A stretch of 64,000 nt of DNA from Polaromonas sp. (GTDB lineage: Bacteria; Pseudomonadota; Gammaproteobacteria; Burkholderiales; Burkholderiaceae_C): positions 11,531-75,530 of the forward strand of contig JAKFXR010000065.1 of the NCBI GenBank assembly GCA_021731285.1, written 5' to 3'. Both the position numbers and the translations under genes were made by a program. Below, in pieces: positions 4,256-61,790 of this stretch (its first letter is position 1; every line of letters starts with the position of its first letter). The notes beneath the pieces are model-generated. The model made no database searches, was not told where the DNA came from, and saw nothing but the letters and a program-made list of their open reading frames with translations.

Positions 4256-4309
4256 GCTATTACATTCATAGCAAACTTTCTCCGTGGTTCAAGGGCAAAA
4301 GCCGAATTT
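4256..4309 (+). repeat. 54-bp fixed-spacing motif, copy 1 (gltD-mlaF intergenic)
   Basis: GCTAT-tacattc-ATAGC-N18-AAGGGC-N9-ATTT; palindrome extends to GTTTGCTAT/ATAGCAAAC. Confidence 0.9.
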
Positions 4310-4439
4310 TTCCCATAAGATGGCGTGAAGAGGCCGTTGGTGCGCCTCAGGCGCCGAATCTACGCGTTCAGGGCAAACCCTTTATCATTGAGGCATTGCA
4401 ATCAAAGTCGGCATTCAGGCTGGCTTTTTCATTCTCCCC

Positions 4440-5285
4440 ATGTCAGACGCGCCTTCCCTTGTTGAATTCAAAGATGTGACCTTTGCCTACCCGGGCTCCA
4501 AAGGCGATCGTGTGATTTTGAACAAGGTCACGCTGTCCGTGCCCCGGGGAAAGGTGACGGCGCTGATGGGCGCCTCCGGCGGAGGCAAGACCACGGTGTT
4601 GCGCCTGATTGGCGGGCAACAGAAGGCCGTGAGCGGTGAAGTGCTGTTTGACGGCCAGGACATCGCGGGCCTTGATCTGGCAGCCTTGTATGCGGCCCGT
4701 CGGCGCATGGGCATGCTGTTCCAGTTTGGCGCACTTTTCACTGACTTGAGCGTGTTCGATAACGTCGCCTTCCCCCTGCGTGAACACACGGGCCTGAGTG
4801 AAGAGCTGGTGCGCGATATCGTTTTGATGAAACTCAACGCGGTCGGACTGCGCGGCGCGCAGGCGCTGATGCCCAGTGAAATTTCGGGCGGCATGGCCAG
4901 ACGCGTGGCGTTGGCCCGGGCGATCGTGCTGGATCCCGAACTGATCATGTACGACGAGCCGTTCGCCGGGCTCGATCCCATCTCCCTCGGTACCGCCGCG
5001 AAACTGATACGCCAGCTCAACGACACCTTGGGCATCACCAGCATTGTGGTCTCGCACGACCTGGAGGAAACCTTCCGGATTGCCGACAAGGTCGTCATTC
5101 TTGCCAATGGTGGTATCGCCGCGCAGGGGACGCCAGACGAAGTCCGCAACTCCACCGATCCGCTGGTGCACCAGTTTGTCAATGCGCTGGCCGAAGGGCC
5201 TGTGCAATTTCATTACCCCGGCCCTGCGGTCGCGGACGATTTCGGCCCGCGGCTTGCCAACACAAAGACAAGGCGCCGGCCATGA
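4440..5285 (+). CDS. mlaF: Phospholipid ABC transporter ATP-binding protein
   Basis: Walker A-like GASGGGKT, SGGMARR signature, YDEPFAGLDP; first gene of mla operon. Confidence 0.95.
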   Translation: MSDAPSLVEFKDVTFAYPGSKGDRVILNKVTLSVPRGKVTALMGASGGGKTTVLRLIGGQQKAVSGEVLFDGQDIAGLDLAALYAARRRMGMLFQFGALFTDLSVFDNVAFPLREHTGLSEELVRDIVLMKLNAVGLRGAQALMPSEISGGMARRVALARAIVLDPELIMYDEPFAGLDPISLGTAAKLIRQLNDTLGITSIVVSHDLEETFRIADKVVILANGGIAAQGTPDEVRNSTDPLVHQFVNALAEGPVQFHYPGPAVADDFGPRLANTKTRRRP

Positions 5286-6076
5286 GCAGGTTTGCCATCA
5301 CTGATCTGCTGGCCGATCTCGGTTATGCCACCCGTGGCAAGCTGACCGAACTGGGTTACGGTGCCCGCCTGATGGCGCGCCTGCTCGTCCTGACGGGACC
5401 TGCGTTTCGCCGCTTTGGCCTGATCCGCGACCAGATTTTCTTTCTGGGTAATTACTCCCTGGCCATCATCACGGTTTCGGGCCTGTTTGTCGGGTTTGTG
5501 TTGGGGCTGCAGAGTTATTACGCGTTACAGCGGTATGGTTCGTCGGAGGCGCTTGGCTTGCTGGTGGCGCTCAGCCTGGTGCGCGAACTGGGTCCGGTGG
5601 TCACCGCCTTGTTGTTTGCAGGGCGTGCCGGTACCGCCCTGACGGCTGAAATTGGCCTGATGAAGGCCGGCGAGCAACTCTCGGCCATGGAGATGATGGC
5701 GGTCGACCCGGTGCGGCGGATTCTCGCCCCCCGCTTTTGGGGCGGGGTGATCGCCATGCCCTTGCTGGCAGCGGTTTTCAGTGCCGTGGGCATTATTGGC
5801 GGGTGGGTGGTCGGTGTGTTGATGATAGGGGTCGACGCCGGTGCTTTCTGGAGTCAGATGCAGGCCGGGGTCGATGTGTGGCGGGACGTCGGCAACGGTG
5901 TGGTCAAGAGCTTTGTCTTCGGTGTCACCGTTACTTTCATCGCACTTTTTCAGGGCTTTGAAGCCCAGGCGACCCCGGAGGGCGTGGCCCGGGCCACCAC
6001 CCGTACTGTGGTGCTGGCCTCTCTGGCTGTACTCGCGTTGGACTTTGTCCTGACGGCACTGATGTTCAGCGTGTGA
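5282..6076 (+). CDS. mlaE: Phospholipid ABC transporter permease
   Basis: RELGPVVTALLFAGRAG and EQLSAMEMMAVDP motifs. Confidence 0.96.
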   Translation: MSRFAITDLLADLGYATRGKLTELGYGARLMARLLVLTGPAFRRFGLIRDQIFFLGNYSLAIITVSGLFVGFVLGLQSYYALQRYGSSEALGLLVALSLVRELGPVVTALLFAGRAGTALTAEIGLMKAGEQLSAMEMMAVDPVRRILAPRFWGGVIAMPLLAAVFSAVGIIGGWVVGVLMIGVDAGAFWSQMQAGVDVWRDVGNGVVKSFVFGVTVTFIALFQGFEAQATPEGVARATTRTVVLASLAVLALDFVLTALMFSV

Positions 6077-6173
6077 CTTATGTCACGCCAGACAATTTCT
6101 TATTAAATGCGAAAATTCATCACTTATTCACCGCTTGACGCATGTCCAGGCTGGTGCCGTCCAAGGAATCAAG

Positions 6174-6680
6174 ATGCAACGCTCTAGAAATGACCTGTGG
6201 GTCGGCCTGTTTGTGCTGGCAGGTGCTGCAGCAGTCCTGTTTTTGGCGCTGAAATCTGCCAACTTGTTGAGTCTGAACTTCGACAAATCCTACGCGGTGG
6301 TTGCCAAATTCGACAACATTGGTGGTTTAAAACCACGTGCCGCAGTCAAAAGTGCGGGAGTCATCGTCGGTAGAGTGGAAAATATTACTTTTGATGACAA
6401 AAGTTACCAAGCAAGTGTTAATCTGGCCATGGAAAGCCGATATGTCTTTCCCAAGGACAGCTCACTGAAAATCCTCACCAGTGGCCTGCTTGGGGAACAA
6501 TACATCGGCGTTGAAGCGGGCGCTGACGAGAAGAATCTTGCGGCGGGCGACGTGATCAAGCAGACGCAGTCGGCCGTCGTTCTCGAAAACCTCATCAGCC
6601 AGTTTTTATACAGCAAGGCGGCGGACAGCAGCACCGGTACGACCACTGCTCCGCCAGCAGGGACCAGCGACAAGAAATGA
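6174..6680 (+). CDS. mlaD: MCE-domain lipid asymmetry protein
   Basis: WVGLFV TM segment, FDNIGGLK, LTSGLLGEQYI; ATG at 6174 preceded by AAGGA. Confidence 0.95.
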   Translation: MQRSRNDLWVGLFVLAGAAAVLFLALKSANLLSLNFDKSYAVVAKFDNIGGLKPRAAVKSAGVIVGRVENITFDDKSYQASVNLAMESRYVFPKDSSLKILTSGLLGEQYIGVEAGADEKNLAAGDVIKQTQSAVVLENLISQFLYSKAADSSTGTTTAPPAGTSDKK

Positions 6681-7444
6681 AAACACGAACCACGATGAAA
6701 TGGCCAGCCCTTTGCGCAGCGTTGCTGGCTTTGGCCATGTTGCAGGGCTGCGCGACCGGCCCCAACCCGCGCGATCCCTTTGAACCCTTCAACCGCAGCG
6801 TCTATCGCTTCAACGAGGGGCTGGACGAAGCTGTGGTCAAACCCGTGGCCAAGGCCTACCAGGCCGTCCTGCCTTCACCCATTCGTACGGGCGTCAACAA
6901 CTTTTTTGGCAACCTGTCGGATGTGTGGTCCGCAGTCAACAGCATTCTTCAGCTCGATCCACAAGCGGCGACTACCAGCGTGATGCGTGTCAGCATCAAT
7001 ACCGTTTTTGGTTTGGGCGGTGTTCTGGACTGGGCCAGCGAAATGGGCCTGGAGCGCAACCGCCAGGATTTTGGAAAAACCCTGGGTCGATGGGGCGTCG
7101 CGCCAGGGCCTTACCTCGTACTGCCGGTGCTCGGGCCTTCCACGGTCCGGGACACCAGCGCCCTGGTCGTGGATGCCAAGGGTGATCTGGTGGGGCATGT
7201 CGATCATGTGCGCACCCGCAACTCCCTGTATGTGCTGCGTGCGGTGGACCTTCGTTCTTCCCTGCTGCGAGCCAGCGACGTTCTGGACCAGGCGGCGCTG
7301 GACAAGTACAGCTTTACCCGGGACGCCTATTTGCAGCGCCGCGGTGCACCGGTGGATACCAACGGCAACGGGAACGGCGAAGCAACTGAGGTTGAGGAGC
7401 GTTACGACCTCCCCGAGGCGGCACCGAAAGGGACGGCCAGGTAA
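6677..7444 (+). CDS. mlaA: VacJ/MlaA outer-membrane lipoprotein
   Basis: Lipobox LQGC, DPFEPFNR, DFGKTLGRWG, GPYLVLPVLGPST. Confidence 0.95.
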   Translation: MKTRTTMKWPALCAALLALAMLQGCATGPNPRDPFEPFNRSVYRFNEGLDEAVVKPVAKAYQAVLPSPIRTGVNNFFGNLSDVWSAVNSILQLDPQAATTSVMRVSINTVFGLGGVLDWASEMGLERNRQDFGKTLGRWGVAPGPYLVLPVLGPSTVRDTSALVVDAKGDLVGHVDHVRTRNSLYVLRAVDLRSSLLRASDVLDQAALDKYSFTRDAYLQRRGAPVDTNGNGNGEATEVEERYDLPEAAPKGTAR

Positions 7445-7485
7445 AGAATACTTACAAGGCTGTCGAAAAACTTCACCGGACTCAC

Positions 7486-7513
7486 GAACTAACGAAGCAC
7501 GCCCCTCGTCCAA
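7486..7513 (+). promoter_or_regulatory. Putative ECF sigma (RpoE-type) promoter upstream of mlaC
   Basis: GAACTA-N17-TCCAA resembles the RpoE/AlgU consensus GAACTT-N16/17-TCNAA. Confidence 0.5.
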
Positions 7514-7589
7514 TCAACACTTGGCACCTGGCAATGCGCATTGGCTTGCAATGCATGGGCGACAAGTTTTGACTTCCACGAAAGAATCC

Positions 7590-8222
7590 ATGAACCGTCG
7601 AAATTTCAGTCATATTGTTGGCGCATCCTTGGCATTTGTCCTGATGGCAGCCGGCCCTGGCGCGCGCGCCGCCGACGAAGCGCCTGATGCCCTGATCAAA
7701 CGCACTTCCAGCGAAGTACTTGAGAGCATCAAGAGCGACAAGGGGATCCAGGCGGGCGACTCGACGAAGGTCATCGCTCTGGTGGACGGAAAGGTCATGC
7801 CCCACGTCAACTTCACCCGGATGACTGCCGCCGCCGTAGGCCGCAACTGGCGTCAAGCCACGCCGGAACAGCAAAAGCGGCTGCAGGACGAATTCAAGAC
7901 GCTGTTGGTACGTACTTATTCAGGGGCGCTGTCCCAGGTCAAGGACCAGGGCGTCAACGTCAAGCCCCTGCGGGCCGCGCCTGCCGACACGGAAGTGGTG
8001 GTCCGCACCGAAATTACTGGCCGTGGTGACCCCATCCAGCTGGACTACCGCATGGAAAAGACGGCCACCGGATGGAAAATTTATGACCTGAATGTCCTGG
8101 GCATCTGGCTCGTGGAAACCTACCGTACGCAATTCGCCCAGGAAATCTCCACCAAAGGCGTGGACGGGCTGATCGCCGCACTGGCGCAGCGCAACAAGTC
8201 CAACATCGAAAAGAAATCCTGA
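7590..8222 (+). CDS. mlaC: Periplasmic phospholipid-binding protein MlaC/Ttg2D
   Basis: Signal peptide, FKTLLVRTYS, WKIYDLNVLG; ATG 7590 (the ORF-track extension to 6987 overlaps mlaA). Confidence 0.95.
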   Translation: MNRRNFSHIVGASLAFVLMAAGPGARAADEAPDALIKRTSSEVLESIKSDKGIQAGDSTKVIALVDGKVMPHVNFTRMTAAAVGRNWRQATPEQQKRLQDEFKTLLVRTYSGALSQVKDQGVNVKPLRAAPADTEVVVRTEITGRGDPIQLDYRMEKTATGWKIYDLNVLGIWLVETYRTQFAQEISTKGVDGLIAALAQRNKSNIEKKS

Positions 8223-8235
8223 GCCGGGCGACGCC

Positions 8236-8508
8236 ATGTTGACGCTTCCCGCCGACCTGACGCATGAGCGGGCTGTACCGACCATGCTGGCTCTCTCGCA
8301 GGCCTTGTCCCGGGAGGCAGACGCTTCGGTGGTGGTAGATGCCAGCGGGTTGAAAATTTTTGATTCTTCGGCGCTCGCCGTTCTGCTGGCCTGCCGCAGG
8401 GAGGCCTTGGCCAAGGGCAAAACCTTTGCTGTCATGGGCTTGCACACACGCTTGCGCCAACTGGCTGGCTTGTATGGGGTGGAGCCCCTGTTGCCTGTTG
8501 CTGCGTGA
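8236..8508 (+). CDS. mlaB: STAS-domain protein
   Basis: DSSALAVLL and LAGLYGV motifs; last gene of mla operon. Confidence 0.88.
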   Translation: MLTLPADLTHERAVPTMLALSQALSREADASVVVDASGLKIFDSSALAVLLACRREALAKGKTFAVMGLHTRLRQLAGLYGVEPLLPVAA

Positions 8509-8601
8509 TGCCGTGATGCCGCGGGTTGTGTCAGGGGACGAAGACCGGATTTATCCCTGCTCCGGTGCCCCTGCAGCGTGAGCCCTTAAAATAGCCGGCT
8601 C

Positions 8602-10295: not shown

Positions 10296-10303
10296 AAATA
10301 TGA

Positions 10304-10395
10304 CCCCCACGCTTCTCGCTTCGCGTAGTGCCCCGCCCCCCGAGGGGGCGCTGCGTCTGCGGGCCGGCGAAGCCGGACCCGCGGCCCCTGCTTGA
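10304..10395 (+). repeat. ~90-bp multi-hairpin REP/MITE-like repeat, copy A1
   Basis: CCCCCACGCT...GCCCCCCGAGGGGGC...CCGGCGAAGCCGG...GCGGCCCCTGCTTGA, shared with six other copies. Confidence 0.9.
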
Positions 10396-10436
10396 CAATG
10401 CGCAGTCAGCGATTGATGACCACCGACAAATAAACT

Positions 10437-10682: not shown

Positions 10683-10686
10683 GAAC

Positions 10687-12599: not shown

Positions 12600-12609
12600 A
12601 CCTGACAGC

Positions 12610-12663
12610 GCTATGGTTTTTGTAGCTAATCCCTCCCGTCTTTCAACGGCCAGCAGCACATTT
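12610..12663 (+). repeat. 54-bp motif, copy 2 (overlaps hisD start)
   Basis: GCTAT-ggttttt-GTAGC-N18-AACGGC-N9-ATTT. Confidence 0.85.
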
Positions 12664-13932
12664 GAAGCGGAGTTGAAGGCGCGCCTGCACTGGTCTGCAG
12701 AGACCGATCAGGAGATCGAGCAGGTGGTTGCCGGTATTTTGGCGGATGTCCAGCAGCGCGGTGATACCGCCGTGCTCGAGTACACCCGCCGCTTTGACCG
12801 CCTCGATGCGGCCTCCATGCAAACGCTGGAGCTGACGCAAACCGAACTCAAGGCAGCGTTTGACGCCATACCTGCCGCCCAGCGTGATGCGCTGCAGGCC
12901 GCGGCCCGGCGGGTGCGCAGCTACCACGAAGCCCAGAAGAAGGCCAACGGCGAAAGCTGGCAGTACCGCGACGCTGACGGCAGCTTGCTTGGCCAAAAAG
13001 TCACCCCGCTGGACCGCGCCGGCATTTACGTGCCGGGCGGCAAGGCCGCTTATCCCTCCTCGGTGCTGATGAATGCCATCCCCGCCCACGTGGCCGGCGT
13101 CGGTGAAATCATCATGGTGGTGCCCACGCCCGGCGGTGAAAAAAATCCGCTGGTGCTGGCCGCGGCTTATGTGGCCGGCGTCACGCGGGCTTTCACGATT
13201 GGCGGCGCGCAGGCGGTGGCAGCTCTGGCCTACGGCACTGCCACCATTCCTGCGGTGGACAAGATCACCGGCCCCGGCAATGCCTACGTAGCGGCTGCCA
13301 AGCGCCGGGTGTTTGGCACTGTTGGCATCGACATGATCGCTGGCCCCAGCGAAATCCTGGTGCTGGCTGACGGCACAACGCCGCCGGACTGGGTGGCCAT
13401 GGACTTGTTCAGCCAGGCCGAGCATGACGAGCTGGCGCAAAGTATTTTGTTGTGCCCTGACGCCGCCTACATTGACGAAGTGCAGGCGGCCATCCACCGT
13501 TTGTTGCCTGGCATGCCGCGCGCTGAAATCATTGCCAAATCGCTCAACGGCCGGGGCGCCCTGATCCACACCCGCAACATGGAAGAAGCCTGCGCCATCA
13601 GCAACCGCATCGCGCCCGAGCACCTGGAGGTGTCAAGTCGCGACCCACACCGGTGGGAGCCCTTGCTCAAACATGCCGGCGCCATTTTTCTCGGGGCCTA
13701 CACCAGCGAATCACTGGGGGACTACTGCGCCGGCCCCAACCACGTGTTGCCCACCAGCGGCACGGCGCGCTTTTCCAGTCCGCTGGGCGTTTACGACTTC
13801 CAGAAACGCAGCAGCCTCATTGAGGTCAGTGAGGCGGGCGCGCAGACTCTGGGAAAAATTGCCGCCGAGCTGGCGTATGGTGAAGGCCTGCAGGCGCATG
13901 CCCGGGCTGCTGAAATGAGGCTGAAGAAATGA
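12613..13932 (+). CDS. hisD: Histidinol dehydrogenase
   Basis: [32 protein letters not shown]; start taken as first ATG after hisG. Confidence 0.97.
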
Positions 13933-15601: not shown

Positions 15602-15638
15602 ATGCCTTTTGGGGCGGCCCACCCGAAAGCTTTGCGAC

Positions 15639-15692
15639 TTTTCGGGGCTTTGCCCTTTGGCGGCGGGAATAGTTCGCTATAAAATCAGTAGC
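15639..15692 (-). repeat. 54-bp motif, copy 3 (hisB-hisH)
   Basis: Plus strand GCCCTT(15652)-N18-GCTAT-aaaatca-GTAGC; distal 4-mer diverged. Confidence 0.85.
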
Positions 15693-15705
15693 AATTGTGG
15701 TTCAA

Positions 15706-21145: not shown

Positions 21146-21937
21146 ATGAGTGATCCCAGTACCGACAAGCCCGACGAACTCGCGGGTACCGAGCAGCCTT
21201 TTGTGCAGCACCTGATCGAGTTGCGCGACCGGATGATCCGCATCGTTGCGGCCGTCGGGATTGCGGCGATTTTGCTGGCCATCTGGCCGGGCCCGGCCTA
21301 TTTGTTTGACCTGCTGGCCGCCCCGCTGGTGGACACCTTGCCAAAGGGCGCATCGCTGATCGCCACTTCCGTCATCTCCCCTTTCCTGGTGCCTTTGAAG
21401 ATATTGCTGATGGCCGCCTTCATGCTGGCCTTGCCGGTGGTGCTGTACCAGGTGTGGGCTTTCGTGGCGCCCGGGCTGTACACGCATGAGAAAAAACTGG
21501 TGATGCCGCTGGTGGTGTCCAGTACGCTGTTGTTTTTTGTCGGCGTGGCTTTTTGCTACTTTTTTGTCTTTGGCCAGGTCTTCAAGTTCATCCAGGGCTT
21601 TGCGCCCAAATCCATTGTGGCCGCGCCGGACATCGAGGCCTACCTCGGCTTTGTGCTGAGCATGTTCCTCGCTTTTGGCATGGCCTTCGAAGTGCCGATT
21701 GCCGTGGTGGTGCTGGCCCGCATGAACATTGTCAGCATCCAGAAGCTCAAGGATTTCCGCGGCTACTTCATCGTGCTGGCCTTTGTCATCGCGGCTATCG
21801 TCACGCCGCCGGATGTCGTCTCGCAACTGGCGCTCGCCATCCCGATGTGCCTGCTCTACGAAGTGGGCATCTGGGCTGCGCAGATCTTCATCAAGCACAC
21901 CCAGGCGCCTGAAGACGCCGAAGCCGCCAAACCTTAA
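21146..21937 (+). CDS. tatC: Tat translocase subunit TatC
   Basis: HLIELRDR, FVAPGLYTHEKK, TPPDVVSQ. Confidence 0.98.
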   Translation: MSDPSTDKPDELAGTEQPFVQHLIELRDRMIRIVAAVGIAAILLAIWPGPAYLFDLLAAPLVDTLPKGASLIATSVISPFLVPLKILLMAAFMLALPVVLYQVWAFVAPGLYTHEKKLVMPLVVSSTLLFFVGVAFCYFFVFGQVFKFIQGFAPKSIVAAPDIEAYLGFVLSMFLAFGMAFEVPIAVVVLARMNIVSIQKLKDFRGYFIVLAFVIAAIVTPPDVVSQLALAIPMCLLYEVGIWAAQIFIKHTQAPEDAEAAKP

Positions 21938-21942
21938 CACTC

Positions 21943-21996
21943 AAAACCGCAACCCGCCCTTTGATGGCGAGGAAAGTTCGCTATGAAAACAGTAGC
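21943..21996 (-). repeat. 54-bp motif, copy 4 (tatC/degS convergent gap)
   Basis: AAAA-N9-GCCCTT-N18-GCTAT-gaaaaca-GTAGC. Confidence 0.9.
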
Positions 21997-22027
21997 GTGC
22001 GCGAGAAACTGCTGAACAGATCCTCCA

Positions 22028-24288: not shown

Positions 24289-25067
24289 ATCCGACCTCCC
24301 CGGTAGCGCCCCGTGCGTTGTTGCTCGCGGCATTCGACCAGTTGCTGCAGCCCGATCGCTTCAAGGACTACGGGCCCAACGGTCTGCAGGTCGAAGGCAA
24401 GGCCGAGGTATGCAAAATCGTCTCGGGAGTCACCGCCAGCCTGGCGCTGATCGAAGCCGCCATTGCAGCGCAGGCCGATGCGATTTTTGTGCACCATGGC
24501 CTGTTCTGGCGCGGGCAGGACGGCCGGGTGACGGGCTGGATGAAGCAGCGCCTGGCCTTGCTGCTGGCGCATGACATCAACCTCTATGCCTACCACCTGC
24601 CGCTGGACGCGCATCCGGAGCTGGGCAACAACGCGCAGCTGGGCTTGCGATTGGGGCTGAAGGCGGATCGCTTTTTCGGCGACAACAGTCTGGGTTTTTT
24701 GGGTGTCCGCAGCGAGGCGGCCAGTACCGGCTTTGAAAACGCCGAGAGCCTGGCGGCTCACATCAAGAGCGCATTAGATCGGCCAGTCGTCCTTGTAGGA
24801 CGGGCGCAGGGTGCTATTGAAAATATAGCATGGTGCACCGGCGGCGCGCAGAATTACTTTGAGGCGGCCATCGCCGCCGGAGCCGACGCCTTCATCACCG
24901 GTGAAATCTCCGAACCGCAGGCGCACTATGCCCGGGAAATGGGTGTGGCCTTCATTGCCTGCGGCCACCACGCTTCCGAGCGTTATGGCGCGCCCGCCGT
25001 GGCTGCCCATGTGGCGGCGCAATTCGGGTTGGCGCACGAGTTCATCGATATCGACAACCCCGGCTGA
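24285..25067 (+). CDS. Nif3-like dinuclear metal protein (YbgI family)
   Basis: [29 protein letters not shown]. Confidence 0.95.
24776..24829 (-). repeat. 54-bp motif, copy 5 (inside Nif3-like CDS)
   Basis: AGAT-N9-GTCCTT-N18-GCTAT-tgaaaat-ATAGC. Confidence 0.85.
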
Positions 25068-26599: not shown

Positions 26600-27628
26600 A
26601 TGAGCAAGCAGGGTGTTTTGGCCATCACCATGGGCGATCCGGCCGGCATTGGCCCGGAGATCATTGCAAGGGCTTTCAGGGAAGCGCCTGCCGATCTCGA
26701 GGGCTGTGTCGTGGCAGGTGACGTGGCCACCTTGCGACGGGCGGCGCAATGTGTCGCGCCGGACGGAGTTGCCATGCCGGTGCTTGAATTGCAGGAGCTG
26801 GCAGGCAGCTTGCCGTTGCCGCCGCGCTGTATTCCGGTGCTACAAAAATGTGAGCTGCCTGCTCCCGTCCCGTATGGACAGGTAAACGGTTTGGCCGGAA
26901 AAGCGGCGGCAGACTGCATAGTCTGGGCGGCCCGCGCTGCCTTGTCCGGGGAGATTGCCGCCATGGTAACCGCGCCAATCCACAAGGAAGCCCTTGCGGC
27001 CGCAGGTGGCCGATTTGCGCTGTTTCCCGGCCATACCGAACTGTTGCAGGCTGAAGCGGCCGCATTCCTTGGTCAACCGCTCTCCGCCTTGCCCGTGCGC
27101 ATGATGCTGGCCAATGACGAACTCAAGACCGTGCTGGTCAGCATTCACCTGTCCCTGCGGCAGGCCATAGAGGCCATCACTCAGGACAGTGTTCTGCAGA
27201 CCTTGCGCATCACGCACCAGGCGGTGCGGGGTCGTACGGGTGGCCAGCCGCGCATTGCCGTGGCTGGTTTGAACCCGCATGCGGGCGAGGGCGGCCTGTT
27301 CGGACGCGAGGAGATGGACATCATTGCCCCGGCCATTGCCGCGGCGCGTGAACTGGGCATGGACGTGAGCGGCCCCTTGTCGCCGGACACCGTGTTCATG
27401 CGGGCACGCAGAGGGGAGTTTGACGTGGTGGTGGCGATGTACCACGACCAGGGCCTGATTCCGGTGAAATACCTGGGGGTGGAGCAGGGCGTCAACGTCA
27501 CGCTGGGTCTGCCGCTGGTGCGTAGCAGCCCGGACCACGGGACCGCTTTTGACATTGCCGGCACTGGCAAGGCCGATGCGTCCAGCCTGATCGCCGCCAT
27601 TCGCATGGCGCGAAAACTGGCCGCCTGA
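26600..27628 (+). CDS. pdxA: 4-hydroxythreonine-4-phosphate dehydrogenase (PdxA family)
   Basis: ITMGDPAGIGPE, GHTE, NPHAGE, MYHDQG, SPDHGTAFDIAG. Confidence 0.93.
   Translation: MSKQGVLAITMGDPAGIGPEIIARAFREAPADLEGCVVAGDVATLRRAAQCVAPDGVAMPVLELQELAGSLPLPPRCIPVLQKCELPAPVPYGQVNGLAGKAAADCIVWAARAALSGEIAAMVTAPIHKEALAAAGGRFALFPGHTELLQAEAAAFLGQPLSALPVRMMLANDELKTVLVSIHLSLRQAIEAITQDSVLQTLRITHQAVRGRTGGQPRIAVAGLNPHAGEGGLFGREEMDIIAPAIAAARELGMDVSGPLSPDTVFMRARRGEFDVVVAMYHDQGLIPVKYLGVEQGVNVTLGLPLVRSSPDHGTAFDIAGTGKADASSLIAAIRMARKLAA
26839..26892 (+). repeat. 54-bp motif, copy 6 (inside pdxA, degenerate)
   Basis: GCTAC-aaaaatg-TGAGC-N18-ATGGAC-N9-GTTT. Confidence 0.65.
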
Positions 27629-27647
27629 AGCGTCCGAGCCAAGGGCC

Positions 27648-27701
27648 AAAAAGGCCTCCGGCCCTTGGGTGGCGGGCGTAAGCAGCTACACAATCGATAG
27701 C
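27648..27701 (-). repeat. 54-bp motif, copy 7 (pdxA/mscL convergent gap)
   Basis: AAAA-N9-GCCCTT-N18-GCTAC-acaatcg-ATAGC. Confidence 0.9.
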
Positions 27702-27719
27702 GACCACCATGTTTCCGAC

Positions 27720-27807
27720 AGCAGGGGCCGCGCGTCCGGCTTTGCCGGCGCGCAGGCGCCGCCCCTGAGGGGGAGGGCCGCTACACGAAGTGAGCGGCTA
27801 ACGGGGT
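27720..27807 (-). repeat. Multi-hairpin repeat, copy A6 (after mscL stop, minus strand)
   Basis: Reverse complement reads CACTTCGTG...CCCCCTCAGGGGCG...CCGGCAAAGCCGG...GCGGCCCCTGC. Confidence 0.88.
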
Positions 27808-27810
27808 GAA

Positions 27811-32744: not shown

Positions 32745-32820
32745 GCCGCTTTAGCTCAGTTGGTAGAGCAACCGCCTTGTAAGCGGTAGGTCGTCAGTTC
32801 GAATCCGACAAGCGGCACCA
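32745..32820 (+). tRNA. tRNA-Thr(TGT)
   Basis: 76-nt cloverleaf GCCGCTT...AAGCGGCACCA; anticodon loop CT-TGT-AA; T-loop TTCGAAT. Confidence 0.97.
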
Positions 32821-32872: not shown

Positions 32873-32889
32873 GCTATCAGTTCGATAGC
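32873..32889. repeat. 54-bp motif, partial copy (palindrome only)
   Basis: GCTAT-cagttcg-ATAGC; only a weak GCCGGT 18 nt upstream. Confidence 0.6.
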
Positions 32890-39461: not shown

Positions 39462-39928
39462 GTGTGCTGGTCGCCGACGGTGAGCGCCCGCGCGAAGGCG
39501 GCGCAGACCGCAAGGTGGTTGACGTGGCCGTTGGCGTGCTGATCCGGCCCGATGGCGACTTCCTCCTCACCTCACGACCGCCAGGAAAGGTCTACGAACA
39601 CTACTGGGAGTTCCCTGGCGGCAAACTGGAGCCCGGTGAAACCGTGGAGCAGGCCTTGCGCCGCGAACTTCAAGAGGAAATCGGCATCACCATCGCCGGC
39701 GTGCACCCGTGGAAGATCGAGATGGTGGACTATCCCCATGCGCTGGTGCGGCTCAACTTCTGCAAGGTGTTTGAGTGGACGGGTGAGCTCCACATGCGGG
39801 AAGGCCAGTTGTATGCATGGCAGGGGCTGCCGGTGGCGGTTAAACCCGTTCTGCCCGGCACTTTGCCTGTACTGGCCTGGTTCGCCAGTGAGCGCGGGTA
39901 TGCAGGAGACACCCGCGGCGGGAGCTAA
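39458..39928 (+). CDS. mutT: Nudix hydrolase, MutT-like
   Basis: WEFPGGKLEPGETVEQALRRELQEEIG Nudix box; secA-argJ-mutT synteny. Confidence 0.85.
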   Translation: MSVLVADGERPREGGADRKVVDVAVGVLIRPDGDFLLTSRPPGKVYEHYWEFPGGKLEPGETVEQALRRELQEEIGITIAGVHPWKIEMVDYPHALVRLNFCKVFEWTGELHMREGQLYAWQGLPVAVKPVLPGTLPVLAWFASERGYAGDTRGGS

Positions 39929-39930
39929 TC

Positions 39931-39984
39931 GCTATGCTATTGACAGCAATTGATTCGCGCTGTTTAAGGGCCAGTGGCAGATTT
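39931..39984 (+). repeat. 54-bp motif, copy 8 (mutT/transglycosylase convergent gap)
   Basis: GCTAT-gctattg-ACAGC-N18-AAGGGC-N9-ATTT. Confidence 0.88.
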
Positions 39985-40009
39985 TTCTCTCATTCGCGGT
40001 GGCAGGGAC

Positions 40010-40660
40010 TCAGCCAAACTCCCACAGTTTTTTCGCGCCCAGCACCGCATCGGGATAGGCGGCCTTGCCGCGTGAACCGTTGTAGCGGCCCAGGCCCATG
40101 AACAGGTCGCCTTTTTCCCGGTCCAGGTAGTGCCGCAGGATCACGCAGCCAAAGCGCAGGTTGGTCTGCATGTGAAACAGCTTGGTGGCGTCGCCGTCGC
40201 CGATCACCCGCGTCCAGAAGGGCATGACCTGCATGTAGCCACGTGCGCCGACCGGGCTCACCGCGAACTTGCGGAAGTTGCTCTCAACCTGAATCAGACC
40301 GAGCACCAGGGCCAGGTCCAGGCCGGCGCGTTTGCTTTCGTACCAGACGGTTTGCAGGAATTCCTTGCGGGCCAGCCACTCGGGCTTCTTCTTTTTCAGG
40401 CGTTCACTCATCGCACCCAGCCAGCGCAGGTAGGCCAGGCGGCTTTCGGTGTCCCGGAACTCGGGCACCGGCGGGGCTTGGTTGGCGATGGCTGAACTGA
40501 GCGCGGTGCGCACCGAGTCGATCAGCGGCTCTTCGATTTGCGCTCCAGCGATGGTTTGCTCTGAAAATAATAGCGAACCAGTCAATACCGGTAAGGACAG
40601 AAGGCATTTTCTTCTTGAAAATTTCCCGGTTGCCGGGCTGGGGGACGCTTGGGTGGGCAT
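40010..40660 (-). CDS. Lytic transglycosylase (SLT domain)
   Basis: IQVESNF, GARGYMQVMP, GRYNG; start uncertain (40660 or 40666). Confidence 0.92.
   Translation of the reverse strand: MPTQASPSPATGKFSRRKCLLSLPVLTGSLLFSEQTIAGAQIEEPLIDSVRTALSSAIANQAPPVPEFRDTESRLAYLRWLGAMSERLKKKKPEWLARKEFLQTVWYESKRAGLDLALVLGLIQVESNFRKFAVSPVGARGYMQVMPFWTRVIGDGDATKLFHMQTNLRFGCVILRHYLDREKGDLFMGLGRYNGSRGKAAYPDAVLGAKKLWEFG
40558..40611 (+). repeat. 54-bp motif, copy 9 (inside transglycosylase signal region)
   Basis: GCTCT-gaaaata-ATAGC-N18-AAGGAC-N9-TTTC. Confidence 0.75.
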
Positions 40661-40675
40661 GAGCACGCAGGCAGT

Positions 40676-43712: not shown

Positions 43713-44838
43713 GAACCAGGTTGGTCCGGTGAATCATTTCGGATTCACCCGTGTAGCCGAGAAGTTTTTCGAATTCCACCGAGGGTTTGCGGCAGATCAG
43801 CCGGGCTTCCACACTGGAGTAATTGGCCAGGCCGCGGGCAATTTCGGAGCCGTCGGCGTCATGGACCGCGATGACATCTCCCCGGGAGAATTCGCCCTGA
43901 ACCTCCACCATGCCGATGGGCAACAGGCTTTTTCCTTCGTCTCGCACCTTGGCCGCAGCACCTGGATCGACGGTGACGGTGCCGCGCAGCTGCAGGTGAT
44001 CTGCCATCCACCTCTTGCGCGCCTGGTTTTTGGGTGTCTGGGCCACCAGCAAGGTGCCCAGTGACTCTCCCTGCGCCAAGCGGATCAGCGCGTTGGGTTC
44101 GCGTCCCCAGGCGATGACGGTGGATGCACCGGAGCCCGCGGCGCGTTTGGCCGCCAGTATCTTGGTGATCATTCCGCCTTTGCCAATGCTGGAGCCAGCG
44201 CCCCCGGCCATGGCTTCGAGTGCAGGGTCACCGGCGGTCGCTTCGTCAACAAAGGTGGCCCCGGGGTCCTTGCGTGGGTCGGCGGTGTACAGGCCCCGCT
44301 GGTCGGTCAGGATGATCAGCGCGTCGGCGTCCACCAGGTTGGCGACCAGCGCGCCCAGGGTGTCGTTGTCACCGAAGCGGATTTCATCGTTGACCACGGT
44401 GTCGTTTTCATTGATGACCGGCACCACCCCGAGTTGCAGCAGGGTCAGCAAGGTTGAACGGGCGTTGAGATAACGCTCCCGGTCAGCCAGGTCAGCATGG
44501 GTCAACAGCACCTGCGCGCTGCGCACGCCGTTTTCGCGCAAATGACTTTCATAGGCATGGACCAGACCCATCTGGCCGACGGCCGCCGCGGCCTGCAGCT
44601 CGTGGATGGCCTTGGGCCGTGTGGCCCACCCGAGCCGCTTGATGCCCTCGGCAATAGCGCCGCTGCTGACCATGATGACCTCGCGGCCTTCTTTGACCAG
44701 CGAGGCCAGCTGTTCGCACCATTGCGCAATGGCGCGCGCGTCCAGTCCCCGGCCTTCGTCGGTGACCAGGCTGGAGCCAACCTTGACCACAATGCGCCTG
44801 GCACTGAGTAGGACTCTGGAACCTGTTTTGTCTTGCAT
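43702..44838 (-). CDS. proB: Glutamate 5-kinase
   Basis: [30 protein letters not shown] domain. Confidence 0.98.
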
Positions 44839-44847
44839 ATGTAAGTA

Positions 44848-44901
44848 AATTAACGACCTCGCCCTTGAAGGGCGGGCACATTCAGCTACCAAATATATAG
44901 C
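44848..44901 (-). repeat. 54-bp motif, copy 10 (obgE-proB)
   Basis: AATT-N9-GCCCTT-N18-GCTAC-caaatat-ATAGC. Confidence 0.9.
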
Positions 44902-44918
44902 AACTGAAGGACGGATGA

Positions 44919-53842: not shown

Positions 53843-53865
53843 GCGCAGGTGTGCCGCAGCAAACT

Positions 53866-54186: not shown

Positions 54187-54283
54187 TTCGGGTCCTTTGG
54201 GGTGGGGTCATGCCACGGCCTGTGCTGCTGGAGGGCCATGACTTTCAATAAGTGGCGTTGAAACCTGGAAAATCCAGTCCCGA

Positions 54284-55153: not shown

Positions 55154-55179
55154 GAGCGAGGTCCGAAAGCACCCACATT

Positions 55180-55233
55180 GCTATTAAATAAATAGCAAAC
55201 TATTGTTGTCACCAAAGGGCAGGTCGGCGATTT
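55180..55233 (+). repeat. 54-bp motif, copy 11 (prfA-prmC)
   Basis: TTGCTAT-taaataa-ATAGCAA; N18-AAGGGC-N9-ATTT. Confidence 0.92.
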
Positions 55234-55252
55234 CATTGCATATCAACGTGTT

Positions 55253-56371
55253 TCAGCCGTTGGAGGCTGTTTCCAGCTCTGCCAGCAGTTCGGCGCCGCG
55301 CGCGACCTGCAGGGCGGTCACCACGTCGTCAAGGTCGCCTTCCATGATGGTCAACAGTTTGTACAGGGTCAGGTTGATGCGGTGGTCGGTCAGCCGCCCC
55401 TGCGGGAAGTTGTAAGTGCGTATGCGGTCGCTGCGGTCGCCGCTGCCGATCAGACCCTTGCGTGTGGCGGCATCCCTGGCAGCCCGCTCGGACCGGTCTT
55501 TTTCATGGATGCGGGCGGTCAGCACCTTGAGGGCCTGCGCCTTGTTGCTGTGCTGGCTGCGGCCATCCTGGCATTCGGCCACGATGCCGGTGGGCAGGTG
55601 GGTGATGCGTACCGCAGAGTCGGTCTTGTTGATGTGCTGTCCGCCCGCGCCGCTGGCGCGGTAGGTGTCGATGCGCAGGTCGGACGGATTGATCTGGATG
55701 GCCACCGCCTCGTCAGGCTCTGGCAGCACGGCCACGGTGCAGGCGCTGGTGTGGATGCGGCCCTGGGTTTCGGTGGCCGGCACGCGCTGCACGCGATGAC
55801 CGCCAGACTCAAAACGCAGCTTGCCATAAACGCCGACGCCCGTGCCGTCGAGGGGGCCCTCCACACGCAGCACCACCTCCTTGTAGCCGCCCAGTTCGCT
55901 GGGCGACTCGCTGATGATTTCACTGCGCCAACCCTTGCGCTCGGCGTACCGGGTGTAGAGCCTGAACAGGTCACCCGCAAACAGCGCCGACTCGTCGCCG
56001 CCGGTACCGGCGCGAATCTCGATAAAAGCCGGACGCGCATCGTCCGGGTCCTTGGGGATCAGCATCAGTTGCAGGGCCTCGTCCAGACGGACGATGTCGG
56101 CCTGCGCGGCGGCAATTTCTTCCTCGGCCATGGCGGCCATCTCGGGGTCGTCTCTGGCTTCAGCCAGCATGGTTTGCGCGCTGGCCAGGTCGGCCTCGCG
56201 CGCTGTCAGTTGCTGGTACTGACCGACCACCACGCTGGCTTCAGAGTGCTCGCGCGTGAGGTTGCGAAAGCGCTCCATGTTGCTGACCACGTCGCTGGCC
56301 GACAGCAGGGCATCGAGCTCGTGCAGCCGGAAAATCTGGCGTTCCAGGGTTTGGCGAAGGAAAGGTTTCAT
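55253..56371 (-). CDS. prfA: Peptide chain release factor 1
   Basis: PAT recognition motif, [12 protein letters not shown]; hemA-prfA-prmC synteny. Confidence 0.98.
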
Positions 56372-56472
56372 TGGAAAAACGCCGTGAGGCAATAAGCGGT
56401 AGGGGCAAGCGTCCGGCCTGAGCCGATGCCGGGGAAGTACTCAAGCCGCAGCTTGAGCCAGCGCCAGCGGCG

Positions 56473-57753: not shown

Positions 57754-57856
57754 TTGAGGATTATAAAATTGAAGGGCCGGTTCGCCCCTTACATTCTTTC
57801 AATCACCTTCATATCGGCCCCACCCGGGAGGACCCGGCCCACAGCGACCGCTCTTC

Positions 57857-58147
57857 ATGACCGCACTCAACCTGATCAATCAGTTGCTCAATTTCATGGC
57901 TCCCGCGGCCTTTGTGGCAGGGATCCTTGTGCTGCTGAGCCGGGTGTTTGCCCGCCTCTTCAAGGTAAAACGGCAGTTTTCCCTTTCGTCACCTCAACAG
58001 TTTGCTATTGTTTTTATAGTGTCTGCTCTGCTGTTGCTGGCCGGCCTGGCGGTGTTTGGACGCGACGGAAAGATGGCCAGCTACGCCTTGCTGGCGCTGG
58101 GTGCGGCGACCTGCCAGTGGGTCTTGCTGCGGGGCTGGAGAGCCTGA
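57857..58147 (+). CDS. Small hypothetical membrane protein
   Basis: Three hydrophobic segments, FGRDGKMASY; divergent from hemA. Confidence 0.7.
   Translation: MTALNLINQLLNFMAPAAFVAGILVLLSRVFARLFKVKRQFSLSSPQQFAIVFIVSALLLLAGLAVFGRDGKMASYALLALGAATCQWVLLRGWRA
57967..58020 (-). repeat. 54-bp motif, copy 12 (inside small membrane protein CDS)
   Basis: AAAA-N9-TCCCTT-N18-GCTAT-tgttttt-ATAGT. Confidence 0.8.
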
Positions 58148-58963
58148 TCAGGCGTCAGGCGCGAAAAAGTCCACCCTGTCGGTGATGATGCCGTCGGTGC
58201 CCAAATCCCAGAGCCGTTGCACCGAAGCCTCATCGTTGACGGTGTAGCTTAAGGCACGAAACCCGGCGCTTTTGGCTTGCAACACGCTGGAGTTGTCCCA
58301 CAGGGTGTGCTTGCAGACCACGGCCACGCAGTCCAGCGTCAAGGCTGTTTCCAGCCAGCCTTTCCAGAAGCCGTCCAGCAGCAGGCCACGCGGCAACTGC
58401 GCCTGCGCCAACTGCGCGGCCTGCAGGGCGCCCGGGTGGAAGGAGGTCAGCAGCGGCGGGACCTCAGCACCTTGCCACAGGCGTGCAGCAGCGTCGGCCA
58501 CGGCTGCGCCTGTTTGCGCTTCCAGTCCAGGTGTGGGCTTGATTTCTATGTTCAGAAAATAACCCTTGCCGAGGCAATAGTCCGCCACTTTTTCCAGAGT
58601 GGCCAGTGGCTCGCCAGCGTAAGCGGGTGAATGCCAGGCGCCTGCGTCAAGCGTTGACAGCTGGTCCCAGCTCTGTGCGCCGCCTGAGCCCAAACCGTTG
58701 CTGGTGCGCTCCAGCGTGGCATCGTGCAGCAGGAAAGGCACACCGTCGGCGCTTAATTTCACATCGCATTCAAACATGCGGTAGCCGTGGCTGGCGCCCA
58801 ACTCGAAAGCCGCGAGGGTGTTTTCAGGGGCCAGCATGCCGGCGCCGCGGTGCGCAATCCAGCGCGGGTAGGGCCAGGCGCCATCCGGCTCCACGCTGCC
58901 CTTTGCACCGGCTAGAGGGGCTGACCTTGCTTGAGGCAGCCCAGCTCTGCGTTCGATGCTCAC
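58148..58963 (-). CDS. ugpQ: Glycerophosphodiester phosphodiesterase
   Basis: IAHRG, PENT, ECDV, NIEIK; start could be GTG 58894. Confidence 0.93.
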
Positions 58964-59979
58964 GCGAGCCTTTTCCCGGATTCTGGATCAAACCAGTGCA
59001 TGCGATCAGCCCTAGCCGTGACATGAATATTCGCCCCCAGAGCGGGGCAAACATCGCTTTCGTTCGCCCGCACAATCAGTTGTTCGTCTCCAAAGCGGCA
59101 GTACACCAGCCGCTCGGCGCCCAGCATTTCGATGGTTTCGACCTGCACTGGCCAGCCTGCTGCTGTGATTTGCAGATGCTCCGGACGCACGCCCATGACG
59201 GCGCCCGCGGGCCCGCCCAGCGTGGCGTTGGGGCCGTGCTTGAGGAGGTTCATCGGAGGCGAGCCCATGAAGCTGCCCACAAAGGTGGTGGCGGGCCGGT
59301 TGTAGACCTCTTCGGGCGTGCCAAACTGCTCCATGCGGCCGGCGTTCATGACAATCATGCGCTGCGCCAGTGTCATGGCCTCGACCTGGTCGTGGGTGAC
59401 AAACAGGGAAGTGATGCCCAGTTCGCGGTGCAGCTTCTGGATTTCCAGCCGCGTTTGCACCCTGAGTTTGGCGTCCAGGTTGGACAGGGGCTCGTCGAAC
59501 AAAAACACCTGCGGCTGGCGCACGATGGCGCGGCCCATGGCCACGCGCTGGCGCTGGCCGCCCGAGAGCTCGCGCGGCTTGCGTGCCAGCAAATGGCCCA
59601 GCTCAAGAATGCCTGCGGCCTTGTCGACCCGTGCCTTGATCTCGTCCAGCGGCACCTTCTTGATCTTGAGCCCATAGGCCATGTTGTCGAACACGCTCAT
59701 GTGTGGATAGAGCGCGTAGTTCTGGAACACCATGGCAATGTCACGCTCGGCCGGTTCCAGCTCATTGACCACGCGCCCGCCTATGGAGATTTCACCGCCG
59801 GAGATTTCCTCCAGGCCGGCGACCATGCGCAGCAGGGTGGACTTGCCACAGCCTGAAGGGCCGACGATAACGATGAATTCATGGTCGGCGATGTCAGCAT
59901 TGACGCCATGGATGACCTGCAGCGCCTGCTTGCCCTTGCCATAGCGCTTGACGACGTCTTTGAGTTGTATTGAAGCCAT
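58960..59979 (-). CDS. ugpC: sn-glycerol-3-phosphate ABC ATPase
   Basis: [27 protein letters not shown]. Confidence 0.93.
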
Positions 59980-60833
59980 TATTTTTCAGTGTCCACAAGA
60001 CCTTTGACAAACCACTTCTGCATCAGCATCACCACGATGGCCGGTGGCAGCATGGCCAGGATGGCGGTGGCCATGACCACATTCCACTCGATATACAGTT
60101 CGCCGAAAATCAGGCGCTTGATGCCCATGACGATGGGGTACATGCGCTCGTCGGTGGTCACCAGCAGTGGCCACAGGTACTGGTTCCAGCCATAGATGAA
60201 CTGGATGACAAACAGCGCGGCGACCGAGGTTTTGGACAGCGGCAGCAGCACGTCCTTAAAAAAGCGCATCGGTCCGGCGCCATCCATGCGCGCCGCTTCG
60301 ACCAGCTCGTCCGGCACGGTCAGGAAAAACTGGCGAAACAAAAAGGTGGCAGTGGCCGACGCGATCAGCGGCACGGTCAGGCCCGACATGGTGTTGAGCA
60401 TGCCCAGGTTGGAGACCACTTCGTAGGTCGGCCCTATGCGCACCTCCACCGGCAGCATGAGGGTCACAAAAATCATCCAGAACACCGCGTTCTTGAACGG
60501 GAAGCGGAAGTAGACAATGGCGAAGGCCGACAGCAGGGAAATGGCAATCTTGCCGATCGCGATGATGAGCGCGCTGGCCAGGCTGATGAGCATCATGGGC
60601 CCCGCTGCTCCAATGGTGGCGCCCGCCTCGGTCTTGCCGCCGAACAGCGCGATCCGGTAACTTTCGACAAAATTGCCACCCGGCATCAACGAGATCGGGT
60701 TGCTGGTCTGGATCTGCGCCGCCGTCTGGGTCGAACCGATGAAGGTCACATAGATCGGGAAAAACACGACAAGCACCCCGAGGATCAGGATCAGGTGCGT
60801 GAAAAAATCAAGGATGGGGTTGCGCTGGATCAT
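59979..60833 (-). CDS. ugpE: sn-glycerol-3-phosphate ABC permease
   Basis: [21 protein letters not shown]. Confidence 0.93.
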
Positions 60834-60849
60834 GGCTGGACTCGGGACA

Positions 60850-61731
60850 TCAGTAGTTCACCTTTTTCTCGACAAATTTGAACTGGATCACCGTCAGCAC
60901 GACAACAATCACCATCAGCACCACCGACTGTGCCGCAGAGCCATTGATGTCCAGCGCCTTGAAGCCGTCGTAGTACACCTTGTAGACCAGGATGGAGGTG
61001 TCCTTGCCCGGTCCGCCATGGGTGGCCGCATCGACGATGGCAAAGGTGTCAAAGAAGGCATAAACGATGTTGATCACCAGCAGGAAAAACGTCGTGGGTG
61101 ACAGCAAAGGGAAGACGATGCTCCAGAAGCGCTTCCAGGGCGAGGCGCCGTCAATGGTCGCGGCCTCAATCAGCGAGTGCGGGATCGATTGCAGCCCCGC
61201 CAGGAAAAACAGGAAGTTGTAGGAGATCTGCTTCCACACCGCAGCCATCACGATCAACGCCATCGCGTGTTTGCCATTGAGCAGGTGGTTCCACTCGAAG
61301 CCGATTTCGCGCAGGGCATAGGCCAGCACACCATAAGGCGAGGCGAACATCATCAGCCAGAGCACGCCGGCCACCACGGGCGCGGTGGCGTACGGCCAGA
61401 TCAGCAGGGTCTTGTAGATGCCGGCGCCGCGCACGACACGGTTGGCCATGACGGCCAGCAGCAGGGCAATGGTCAGCCCCGACACGGCCACCAGCGCGGA
61501 GAAAATCGCGGTGGTGTAGAAGGACTCCAGATAGCCCGGGTCCCCGAACAGGCGGCGAAAATTGTCCAGTCCGACAAATTCGCGGGAGGAACCGAAAGCG
61601 TCTTCCAGCAACAGGCTTTGGTACAGCGCCTGACCTGCCGGCCAGAAAAAGAAAACCAGAATGACCGCCATCTGCGGCGCAATCAGCGCCCAGGGCAGCC
61701 AGGCCGATTTGAAAAGTACCCGTTTTTCCAT
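60850..61731 (-). CDS. ugpA: sn-glycerol-3-phosphate ABC permease
   Basis: WKQISYNFLFFLAGLQSIP, SAAQSV. Confidence 0.93.
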   Translation of the reverse strand: MEKRVLFKSAWLPWALIAPQMAVILVFFFWPAGQALYQSLLLEDAFGSSREFVGLDNFRRLFGDPGYLESFYTTAIFSALVAVSGLTIALLLAVMANRVVRGAGIYKTLLIWPYATAPVVAGVLWLMMFASPYGVLAYALREIGFEWNHLLNGKHAMALIVMAAVWKQISYNFLFFLAGLQSIPHSLIEAATIDGASPWKRFWSIVFPLLSPTTFFLLVINIVYAFFDTFAIVDAATHGGPGKDTSILVYKVYYDGFKALDINGSAAQSVVLMVIVVVLTVIQFKFVEKKVNY

Positions 61732-61736
61732 CAGAT

Positions 61737-61790
61737 GCTATAAAAATAGGAGCAAACCGCCCGCACCATTCGAGGGCAGACCGGCTTTTT
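61737..61790 (+). repeat. 54-bp motif, copy 13 (ugpB-ugpA)
   Basis: GCTAT-aaaaata-GGAGC-N18-GAGGGC-N9-TTTT. Confidence 0.82.

Follow-up and report, generated by a model that had tools for sequence, protein, structure and literature searches.

The described systems that come closest to the repeat reported here are the repetitive extragenic palindromic sequences and bacterial interspersed mosaic elements (REP/BIME), the uptake signal sequences (USS) of Pasteurellaceae and DNA uptake sequences (DUS) of Neisseriaceae, the Rickettsia palindromic elements (RPE), and the NTS/SRM repeats of the Ssn system. We analysed an element of about 75 bp, built on the dyad GCTAT-N7-ATAGC with the box AAGGGC at a fixed distance from it, whose copies are scattered along a 64,000-nt stretch of a Polaromonas sp. 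genome (GCA_021731285.1; hereafter the window, G000:C3:11531-75530, with G000 denoting the source genome) and through the rest of that genome. The reading that we favour, and hold tentatively, is that of an old, vertically inherited Comamonadaceae element that may be recognised, as double-stranded DNA, by a sequence-specific protein and have a chromosome-level role of the REP/BIME kind.

Like REP/BIME, the element occurs as hundreds of short, mostly extragenic copies that sit at gene 3' ends and in convergent gaps, are tolerated in operons, and take both orientations; a number of them pair up as inverted doublets at fixed spacing, the copies persist vertically over long times, and a chromosome-organising role through protein binding is plausible. 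It differs in that an AT-rich dyad (5-bp arms, 7-nt centre) precedes about 55 nt of asymmetric boxes, where REP/BIME have a GC-rich hairpin tagged with GTAG/CTAC, in that the sole RAYT-like (REP-associated tyrosine transposase) gene of the genome is flanked by other repeats and shows no co-variation with the element, and in that about 19% of copies lie in frame inside genes, several of them overlaying native codons.

USS and DUS have cores of 9-12 nt and occur about once per kb. The element shares with them equal orientations, preferred coding frames, dialects, even spacing, and scarcity in foreign DNA, but its length is about sixfold theirs and its frequency about a tenth, and it has several parts held at fixed spacing. 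As with RPE, some copies are read in frame in housekeeping proteins (loops of MoeA and SpoU); RPE are protein-lengthening insertions, whereas the copies in NIF3, EarP, MIP, and at the hisD start add or replace nothing, and the two repeats are unrelated in lineage and sequence. RPE-type lengthening is seen in MoeA (about 23 aa) and SpoU (28 aa) and in none of NIF3, EarP, MIP, P450, RsmB, and PolyA_pol. The NTS/SRM repeats resemble the element in being dispersed and oriented, in combining a short dyad with a conserved flank that includes a CGTC-like box, and in numbering hundreds of copies. Unlike in the Ssn/NTS system, no small GIY-YIG gene was found in the source genome; only 2% of NTS repeats fall within genes, and the repeats gather near certain genes (Chenal et al. 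2025, PMC11893778).

Searches of the literature with sequence strings and with repeat and RAYT keywords returned a single published trace, Tong et al. 2017 (PMC5217627). For Polaromonas naphthalenivorans CJ2 that study names ATAGCT(N)22CAAAAG a "potential novel motif" and leaves it unexplained; most of its 125 copies are intergenic, 34 sit between convergent genes, and the motif is given no function. A second motif, GCTTAT(N)5AAGCG in Acidovorax ebreus TPSY, is likewise unexplained. The geometry of the CJ2 motif equals element positions +12..+17 and +40..+45, counted from the first G of the dyad. What is given there is a pair of pentamer/hexamer boxes in a single genome; the study does not describe the full 75-nt element, its spread across the family, its persistence at orthologous sites, or its coding overlays.

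A multipartite element with fixed geometry

The source genome belongs to a groundwater bacterium and is represented by a 4.0-Mb assembly (169 contigs, 61.6% GC, 87.6% complete); relatives of HisD place the neighbourhood in the Comamonadaceae (Polaromonas, Rhodoferax, Variovorax, Acidovorax, and others). Searching the window for GCTAT-N7-ATAGC-N18-AAGGGC with up to two mismatches returned 12 matches, against none in 100 shuffles, and the bare dyad has four exact matches where 0.01 are expected. The same pattern and tolerance gave 378 matches in the whole genome, and a profile built from element copies detected 431 copies there at E <= 0.01, about one per 9 kb. An earlier reading of the window's letters (the original prediction) had listed 13 full copies, and the profile recovers every one at the same place and orientation, including the weak copies at 26839 and 61737; judged by the profile, a palindrome-only copy that had been proposed at 32873 falls outside the family.

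We counted matches with at most one mismatch for every combination of loop length 4-10 and spacer length 12-24. Loop 7 with spacer 18 yielded 268 matches and each other combination 0-4, so the fixed geometry is real and genome-wide. The invariant 7/18 spacing noticed in the window thus extends to the genome, and enrichment of AAGGGC at exactly 18 nt from the palindrome, which had been set beforehand as a test, holds at that scale.

The spacers, which had been taken to be unrelated in sequence, in fact share a consensus. In a logo of 372 copies the element spans about 75 nt, from -4 to about +70, and reads ATT GCTAT nAAATTn ATAGC AAACTATnCCCGTCnnnA AAGGGC AAAAGGCCGATTT..YT..AA, where AAACTATnCCCGTCnnnA fills the spacer +17..+34 and AAAAGGCCGATTT..YT..AA follows AAGGGC, for a total of 53.8 bits. 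Its fixed boxes are the 17-bp dyad, a lineage-specific box at +17..+24, CCCG, AAGGGC at exactly +35, GCC, and ATTT. The dyad consists of the 5-bp arms GCTAT and ATAGC around an AT-rich 7-nt centre, and the remainder of the element is non-palindromic. Subfamilies exist, and mutual information across copies lies mostly between neighbouring positions, i.e., it reflects subfamily effects; no long-range Watson-Crick covariation was found by this measure, and changes at the fifth dyad pair (T/C against A/G) are uncompensated.

No terminal inverted repeats are present in the consensus. Identity of flanking k-mers equals that of shuffled pairs for k = 4-6 at all boundaries tested, and three comparisons of empty with filled sites showed no target-site duplication, so that the element differs in both respects from a MITE (miniature inverted-repeat transposable element). 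Shared spacers and target-site duplications had been named as the marks of a decayed MITE; the shared spacer consensus exists, and duplications above the control do not. At the Rfam gathering threshold two tRNAs are the only matches, and no family fits the element.

Genomic placement and orientation

Gene positions were taken from a home-made gene caller (3,452 genes, 85% coding). Most copies are intergenic, with an enrichment between convergent genes: 85 of the 431 fall in the 365 convergent gaps, 28 in the 419 divergent gaps, and 160 in co-directional gaps. Orientation is indifferent to transcription, with 81 copies in co-directional gaps pointing the same way as the genes and 79 the opposite way, and with 36 and 44, respectively, inside open reading frames (ORFs). 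The gene calls bear out the prediction that copies, in either orientation, are placed between convergent genes, within operons (his, prfA-prmC), and inside reading frames, and the annotated neighbours are functionally unrelated, as had been stated. In the window, an entire intergenic gap often equals the element (hisB-hisH, prfA-prmC, and others).

An RNA-level element (intrinsic terminator, mRNA-stabilising hairpin, or small RNA) would match the short dyad followed by a T-rich patch and the many copies directly after stop codons and between convergent genes; E. coli REPs, for comparison, stabilise upstream mRNA. Such a role is nevertheless most improbable, since the element is asymmetric yet lacks an orientation bias to transcription, its 5-bp stem carries uncompensated changes with no covariation elsewhere, and copies are found in ORFs, in the prfA-prmC gap, and within the his operon. 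From an intrinsic terminator in particular it is set apart by the absence of co-orientation, covariation, and an Rfam match. Asymmetry without a preferred transcriptional orientation and without covariation points to double-stranded DNA and away from RNA.

The same distribution bears on a LysR-type binder, which the original prediction had put forward as one candidate. Boxes with the form T-N11-A and N7 spacing are typical of LysR-type factors, and the dyad has this shape, which was the sole basis of the proposal and stands; operators of an OxyR-like factor with a very large regulon would then be dispersed over the genome. The promoter placement expected of a regulon is missing. Only 28 of 431 copies lie in divergent regions, compared with 85 between convergent genes, which makes a classical LysR regulon unlikely, and the unrelated neighbour genes and the roughly 19% of copies inside ORFs count further against it, as does the fact that CTAT-N7-ATAG is the junction between OxyR dimer sites and not a dimer site itself. 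We consider this regulon very unlikely; a LysR-type protein may all the same be the reader of the sites. Promoter readings (sigma-70, sigma-54, and extracytoplasmic function sigma factors) were rejected on consensus spacings that misfit and on placement.

Mapping against replication, as had been proposed, showed that orientation is nearly independent of it: relative to the G-rich strand the ratio is about 56:44 and does not sharpen at stronger skew, and replication polarity was rejected on this ground. Density depends on the character of the surrounding DNA, falling from about 1.3 per 10 kb elsewhere to 0.16 in the one-tenth of bins whose codon usage is most atypical, a roughly 8-fold depletion.

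A possible counterpart of BIME-type composite arrays is a set of 15 tail-to-tail doublets with a total length of 166-179 nt, ten of them at 177-179 nt (for example, C84:12865-13043, C6:42424-42601, and C40:29291-29468 in G000), and 93% of copies are single. The arms of a doublet are about 50% identical, which is no closer than random copies are to each other, and the middles lack conservation. Synteny between G000 and the sister species G023 breaks just past window position ~58,100; in G023 the break falls at an element doublet (C10, about 82,900-83,110) that is orthologous to G000:C84:12865-13043, possibly reflecting a rearrangement between copies.

Distribution and vertical inheritance

Among 24 other genomes of the genus (including the sister species G023 as well as G006, G009, G001, and G010), 16 carry the exact pattern, at 0 to about 100 copies per genome. 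In the family it occurs in 28 of 150 genera of Comamonadaceae; it was found in none of 16 other families of the order, and the reversed pattern, used as a control, gave zero everywhere. Dyad counts within the genus run from 172 in G006 and 183 in G009 to 14 in G007, 5 in G010, and 2 in G001. The counts in G001 and G010 equal background, their in-gene copies are decayed at silent sites, and their intergenic gaps are about 70 nt shorter. This streamlined clade of the same genus (G001, G010, G020 type) has lost the element completely.

Where the element is retained, it stays in place. Eleven to twelve of the 13 window copies occupy the same site in the same orientation in G023, G006, and G009, and for 30 copies ascertained in G023, 26 are matched by a G000 copy at the orthologous site, in every case in the same orientation. 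The copies at 21923 and 27628 are absent from G023, and one at about 18100 is absent from G000. Orthologous copies of G023 and G000 have 0.50 identity at weakly constrained columns, compared with 0.57 at 4-fold degenerate sites and with 0.30 for non-orthologous copy pairs, and about 0.7-1.0 identity in the boxes. Orthologous sites, near-neutral drift of the free positions, and fixed boxes together mean that the copies descend vertically and that purifying selection acts on the boxes. Active homogenisation between G000 and G023 was rejected, given that orthologous copies share private features and drift about neutrally.

Three window sites differ between species by the presence or absence of about 70-75 nt. 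The copy at 15619..15698 (minus strand, 49 bits in the profile) fills the hisB-hisH gap of the his operon and has orthologous copies in G023, G006, G009, and G021; in element-free congeners this gap measures 1-37 nt. The copy at 21923..22002 (minus strand) lies between convergent genes, and the corresponding site in G023 lacks it and is about 75 nt shorter. The copy at 27628..27707 (minus strand) directly follows the pdxA stop codon and carries an ancestral-type box, TGCTTACG; about 72 nt are missing from its site in G023. The original prediction had described a selected site that was neither a recently copied element nor an ordinary regulon. Selection on the boxes and a chromosome-wide set are borne out; the claim that the element was not copied is not supported, given the full-length consensus, these ~70-75-nt differences, and loop insertions in two proteins (below), and copies once spread as units.

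One way to account for that spread is a non-autonomous selfish element, REP/REPIN- or MITE-like, that was carried earlier by a putative trans-acting enzyme, is now largely immobile, and is conserved according to the needs of the enzyme. Beyond the full-length consensus with its subfamilies and the three presence/absence sites, the 23-28-aa loop insertions in MoeA and SpoU, the inverted doublets, the G023 synteny breakpoint at one of them, and the single RAYT-like Y1 transposase gene in the genome would all fit. This gene (Y1_Tnp, 233 aa; G000:C3:8556-9254, locus L046:1462-2163) lies 2.3 kb upstream of the window, between the arms of a perfect 17-nt inverted repeat of its own (AATTATTGGGGACAGAT / ATCTGTCCCCAATTATT), which is found only there. 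It is present and syntenic in all 24 congeners, the element-free ones included, and occurs in other families too; being in every congener with or without the element, it is not the element's partner, and RAYT as the mobiliser was rejected for its different flanking repeats and its failure to co-vary.

No reverse transcriptase was found in the genome, and no small GIY-YIG (ssnA-like) gene, the sole match in this 87.6% complete genome being a UvrC-sized open frame of 772 aa. The element is not currently mobile: no recent insertion was seen, with 26 of 30 copies in common with the sister species and the MoeA insertion genus-wide. Exact matches occur on only 29 of 2.9 million viral contigs, one on each, and a BLAST search with one 81-nt copy against plasmid and phage collections returned no match, sensitivity being low for so short a query. 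The lack of terminal inverted repeats and of target-site duplications above the control, several overlays on native codons without change in length, and the 8-fold depletion in foreign-looking DNA also tell against a selfish origin of the conservation, and we regard it as unlikely.

Copies inside genes

About 19% of the copies (80 of 431) sit in an open frame and are flanked on each side by coding-like sequence, and in 60 of these 80 the dyad is in phase 0 (GCT ATx .. ATA GCx). In the window such copies are found at the hisD start, in NIF3/DUF34, in pdxA, in the signal-peptide region of an SLT-domain protein, and in a 96-aa membrane-protein ORF.

The copy at 24756..24835 (minus strand) lies over native NIF3/DUF34 codons, residues about 158-184, including AIENIA. 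Here the protein aligns colinearly with E. coli YbgI and with its counterparts in element-free congeners, and rare codons such as ATA are used; for example, GCT ATT AAA AAC ATA GCA with the element corresponds to GCG ATT CAA AAT ATC GCT in element-free congeners. We consider the NIF3 case decisive, in that the codon comparison indicates constraint at the DNA level and not at the protein level.

The copy at 12604..12683 (plus strand) supplies the hisD start codon (ATG in GCTATG) and about 25 N-terminal codons. The HisD N-terminus has equal length across the named Comamonadaceae genera and the element-free congeners. Its coding sequence is element-like in Polaromonas, Acidovorax, Simplicispira, Xylophilus, and Comamonas and is GC-rich without the dyad in Variovorax, Hydrogenophaga, Ramlibacter, and Limnohabitans; element-free hisD starts encode the same amino acids with GC-rich codons.

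Six of the 20 best in-gene copies fall within Pfam domain matches with an excess of 0-4 aa (EarP, MIP, P450, the ferredoxin-like domain of RsmB, tRNA U5 methyltransferase, and PolyA_pol). The copy in SpoU accounts for an excess of about 28 aa, and that in MoeA for about 23 residues beyond E. coli MoeA. The MoeA insertion is present in all congeners tested, with a shortened remnant in an element-free one, and in this loop the peptide is poorly conserved and the DNA boxes are kept. Overlays on native codons and ancient insertions thus both occur with boxes kept, which places the constraint on the DNA.

Overlays on native codons in a preferred phase (60 of 80 in phase 0), equally common orientations, and fairly even spacing are also properties of a DNA-uptake-type or "self" signal analogous to USS/DUS, which would accumulate and be kept by molecular drive, for instance through uptake or recombination biased towards DNA with the motif, with a dialect matched to the receptor of the lineage. 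Lineage-specific dialects and the depletion in foreign-looking DNA agree with such a signal, and ComEC and PilO are present; both proteins occur in element-rich and element-free congeners alike, which makes them uninformative as discriminators. At about 75 bp, 54 bits, and one copy per ~9 kb, the element is far from known uptake sequences with their 9-12-nt cores at about one per kb, and we know of no report of sequence-biased uptake in Comamonadaceae, a subject that was not exhaustively searched. We consider an uptake signal distinctly unlikely.

A candidate protein recognition site

We return to the reading of the element as a double-stranded DNA recognition site, for which we infer both the protein reader and its function. 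A dimer of the reader would sit on the GCTAT-N7-ATAGC dyad and make further one-sided contacts over about 45-60 bp, and purifying selection would keep the fixed boxes. The role would be chromosome-level and independent of orientation, such as nucleoid or supercoil organisation, and would not lie in the control of particular genes.

Several observations weigh against this reading. No reader protein was found for the element, and the loss of the element by a whole clade without obvious harm argues for a dispensable function. Copy counts per 5-10-kb bin of the core genome are under-dispersed, as even spacing would have it, only modestly (variance/mean 0.72-0.75, with hits less than 200 nt apart merged beforehand). 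No significant helical periodicity is seen in the AT content (p = 0.12-0.34), and wrapping of DNA is therefore not claimed. In addition, the box at +17..+24 comes in dialects: RAACTNT is found in 72 copies in G000 and 36 in G023 and in 0-3 copies in G011, G017, and G009, which carry TGnTnGCG at these positions, and other genera have further versions. Dialects, ~70-75-nt indels, and loop insertions together imply that copies once spread as a unit, and a model of pure in-situ binding sites fails at those points.

A bolder form of the proposal, possible but doubtful, is that the Comamonadaceae share a ~75-bp multipartite code read by a dedicated putative protein whose specificity drifts into dialects, with selection or drive writing sites into essential genes and signal peptides, in the service of genome organisation or self-marking; it would be a type of system for which no counterpart has been described. 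If such a dedicated reader exists, the element would be a family-wide DNA signal with several hundred sites per genome, and the purpose of dispersed bacterial repeats would become testable in culturable Polaromonas, Acidovorax, and Rhodoferax; element-rich and element-free species within one genus offer a natural contrast for finding the reader. The element constrains codon choice in housekeeping genes and supplies start codons and signal peptides, and annotation of such genomes calls for caution, as gene starts and apparent insertions are often element copies.

Further copies and features in the window

Four of the remaining window copies lie between genes transcribed in one direction. Those at 4250..4329 (plus strand; exact pattern, 47 bits; orthologous copies in G023 and G009) and 44828..44907 (minus strand; 45 bits; orthologues in G023, G006, and G009) lie between two plus-strand and two minus-strand genes, respectively. 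The copy at 55174..55253 (plus strand, exact pattern) constitutes the entire prfA-prmC intergenic gap, and that at 61731..61810 (plus strand, 33 bits) lies between two minus-strand genes with its head 5 nt from a start codon. The copy at 39925..40004 (plus strand) is situated between a NUDIX gene and a convergent SLT-domain gene.

Three copies overlap reading frames. A weak copy inside pdxA (26833..26912, plus strand, 18 bits) is found at the same site in G023 and G006; the PdxA profile match begins upstream of the called pdxA start. The copy at 57947..58026 (minus strand) lies inside the 96-aa membrane-protein ORF (57857-58147, plus strand), and its flanks align base for base in G023, G006, and G009. 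Opposite the copy at 40552..40631 (plus strand), the other strand encodes the signal-peptide region of the SLT-domain protein (ORF 40010-40666, minus strand), whose signal-peptide-like N-terminus (KFSRRKCLLSLPVLTGSLLFSEQTIAGA) is thus encoded by element copy 40552-40631.

Next to the copy that follows pdxA, a non-coding block upstream of mscL (27710-27810), with GGCCGCTACACGAAGTGAGCG, is conserved in G000, G023, G009, and G011 while the adjoining element comes and goes. The palindrome-only site at 32873-32889, GCTATCAGTTCGATAGC, lies 56 nt downstream of a tRNA gene (32745-32817); its 17-mer recurs identically in G009 (C3:64244-64260) at a position consistent with synteny and may be a separate conserved feature. 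The Pfam match of PilO scores 68-90 bits in element-free congeners (G001:C4:7018-7410, G010:C34:15438-15845, and G020:C341:6851-7267) and 173-176 bits in element-rich ones. Four groundwater and drinking-water sequencing runs were compared at the window, where they gave fragmented multi-strain cover in which indels are not readable. At window position 39944, within the copy next to the NUDIX gene, a C>T change in a deeply covered groundwater run (another strain) turns the right arm ACAGC into the consensus ATAGC.

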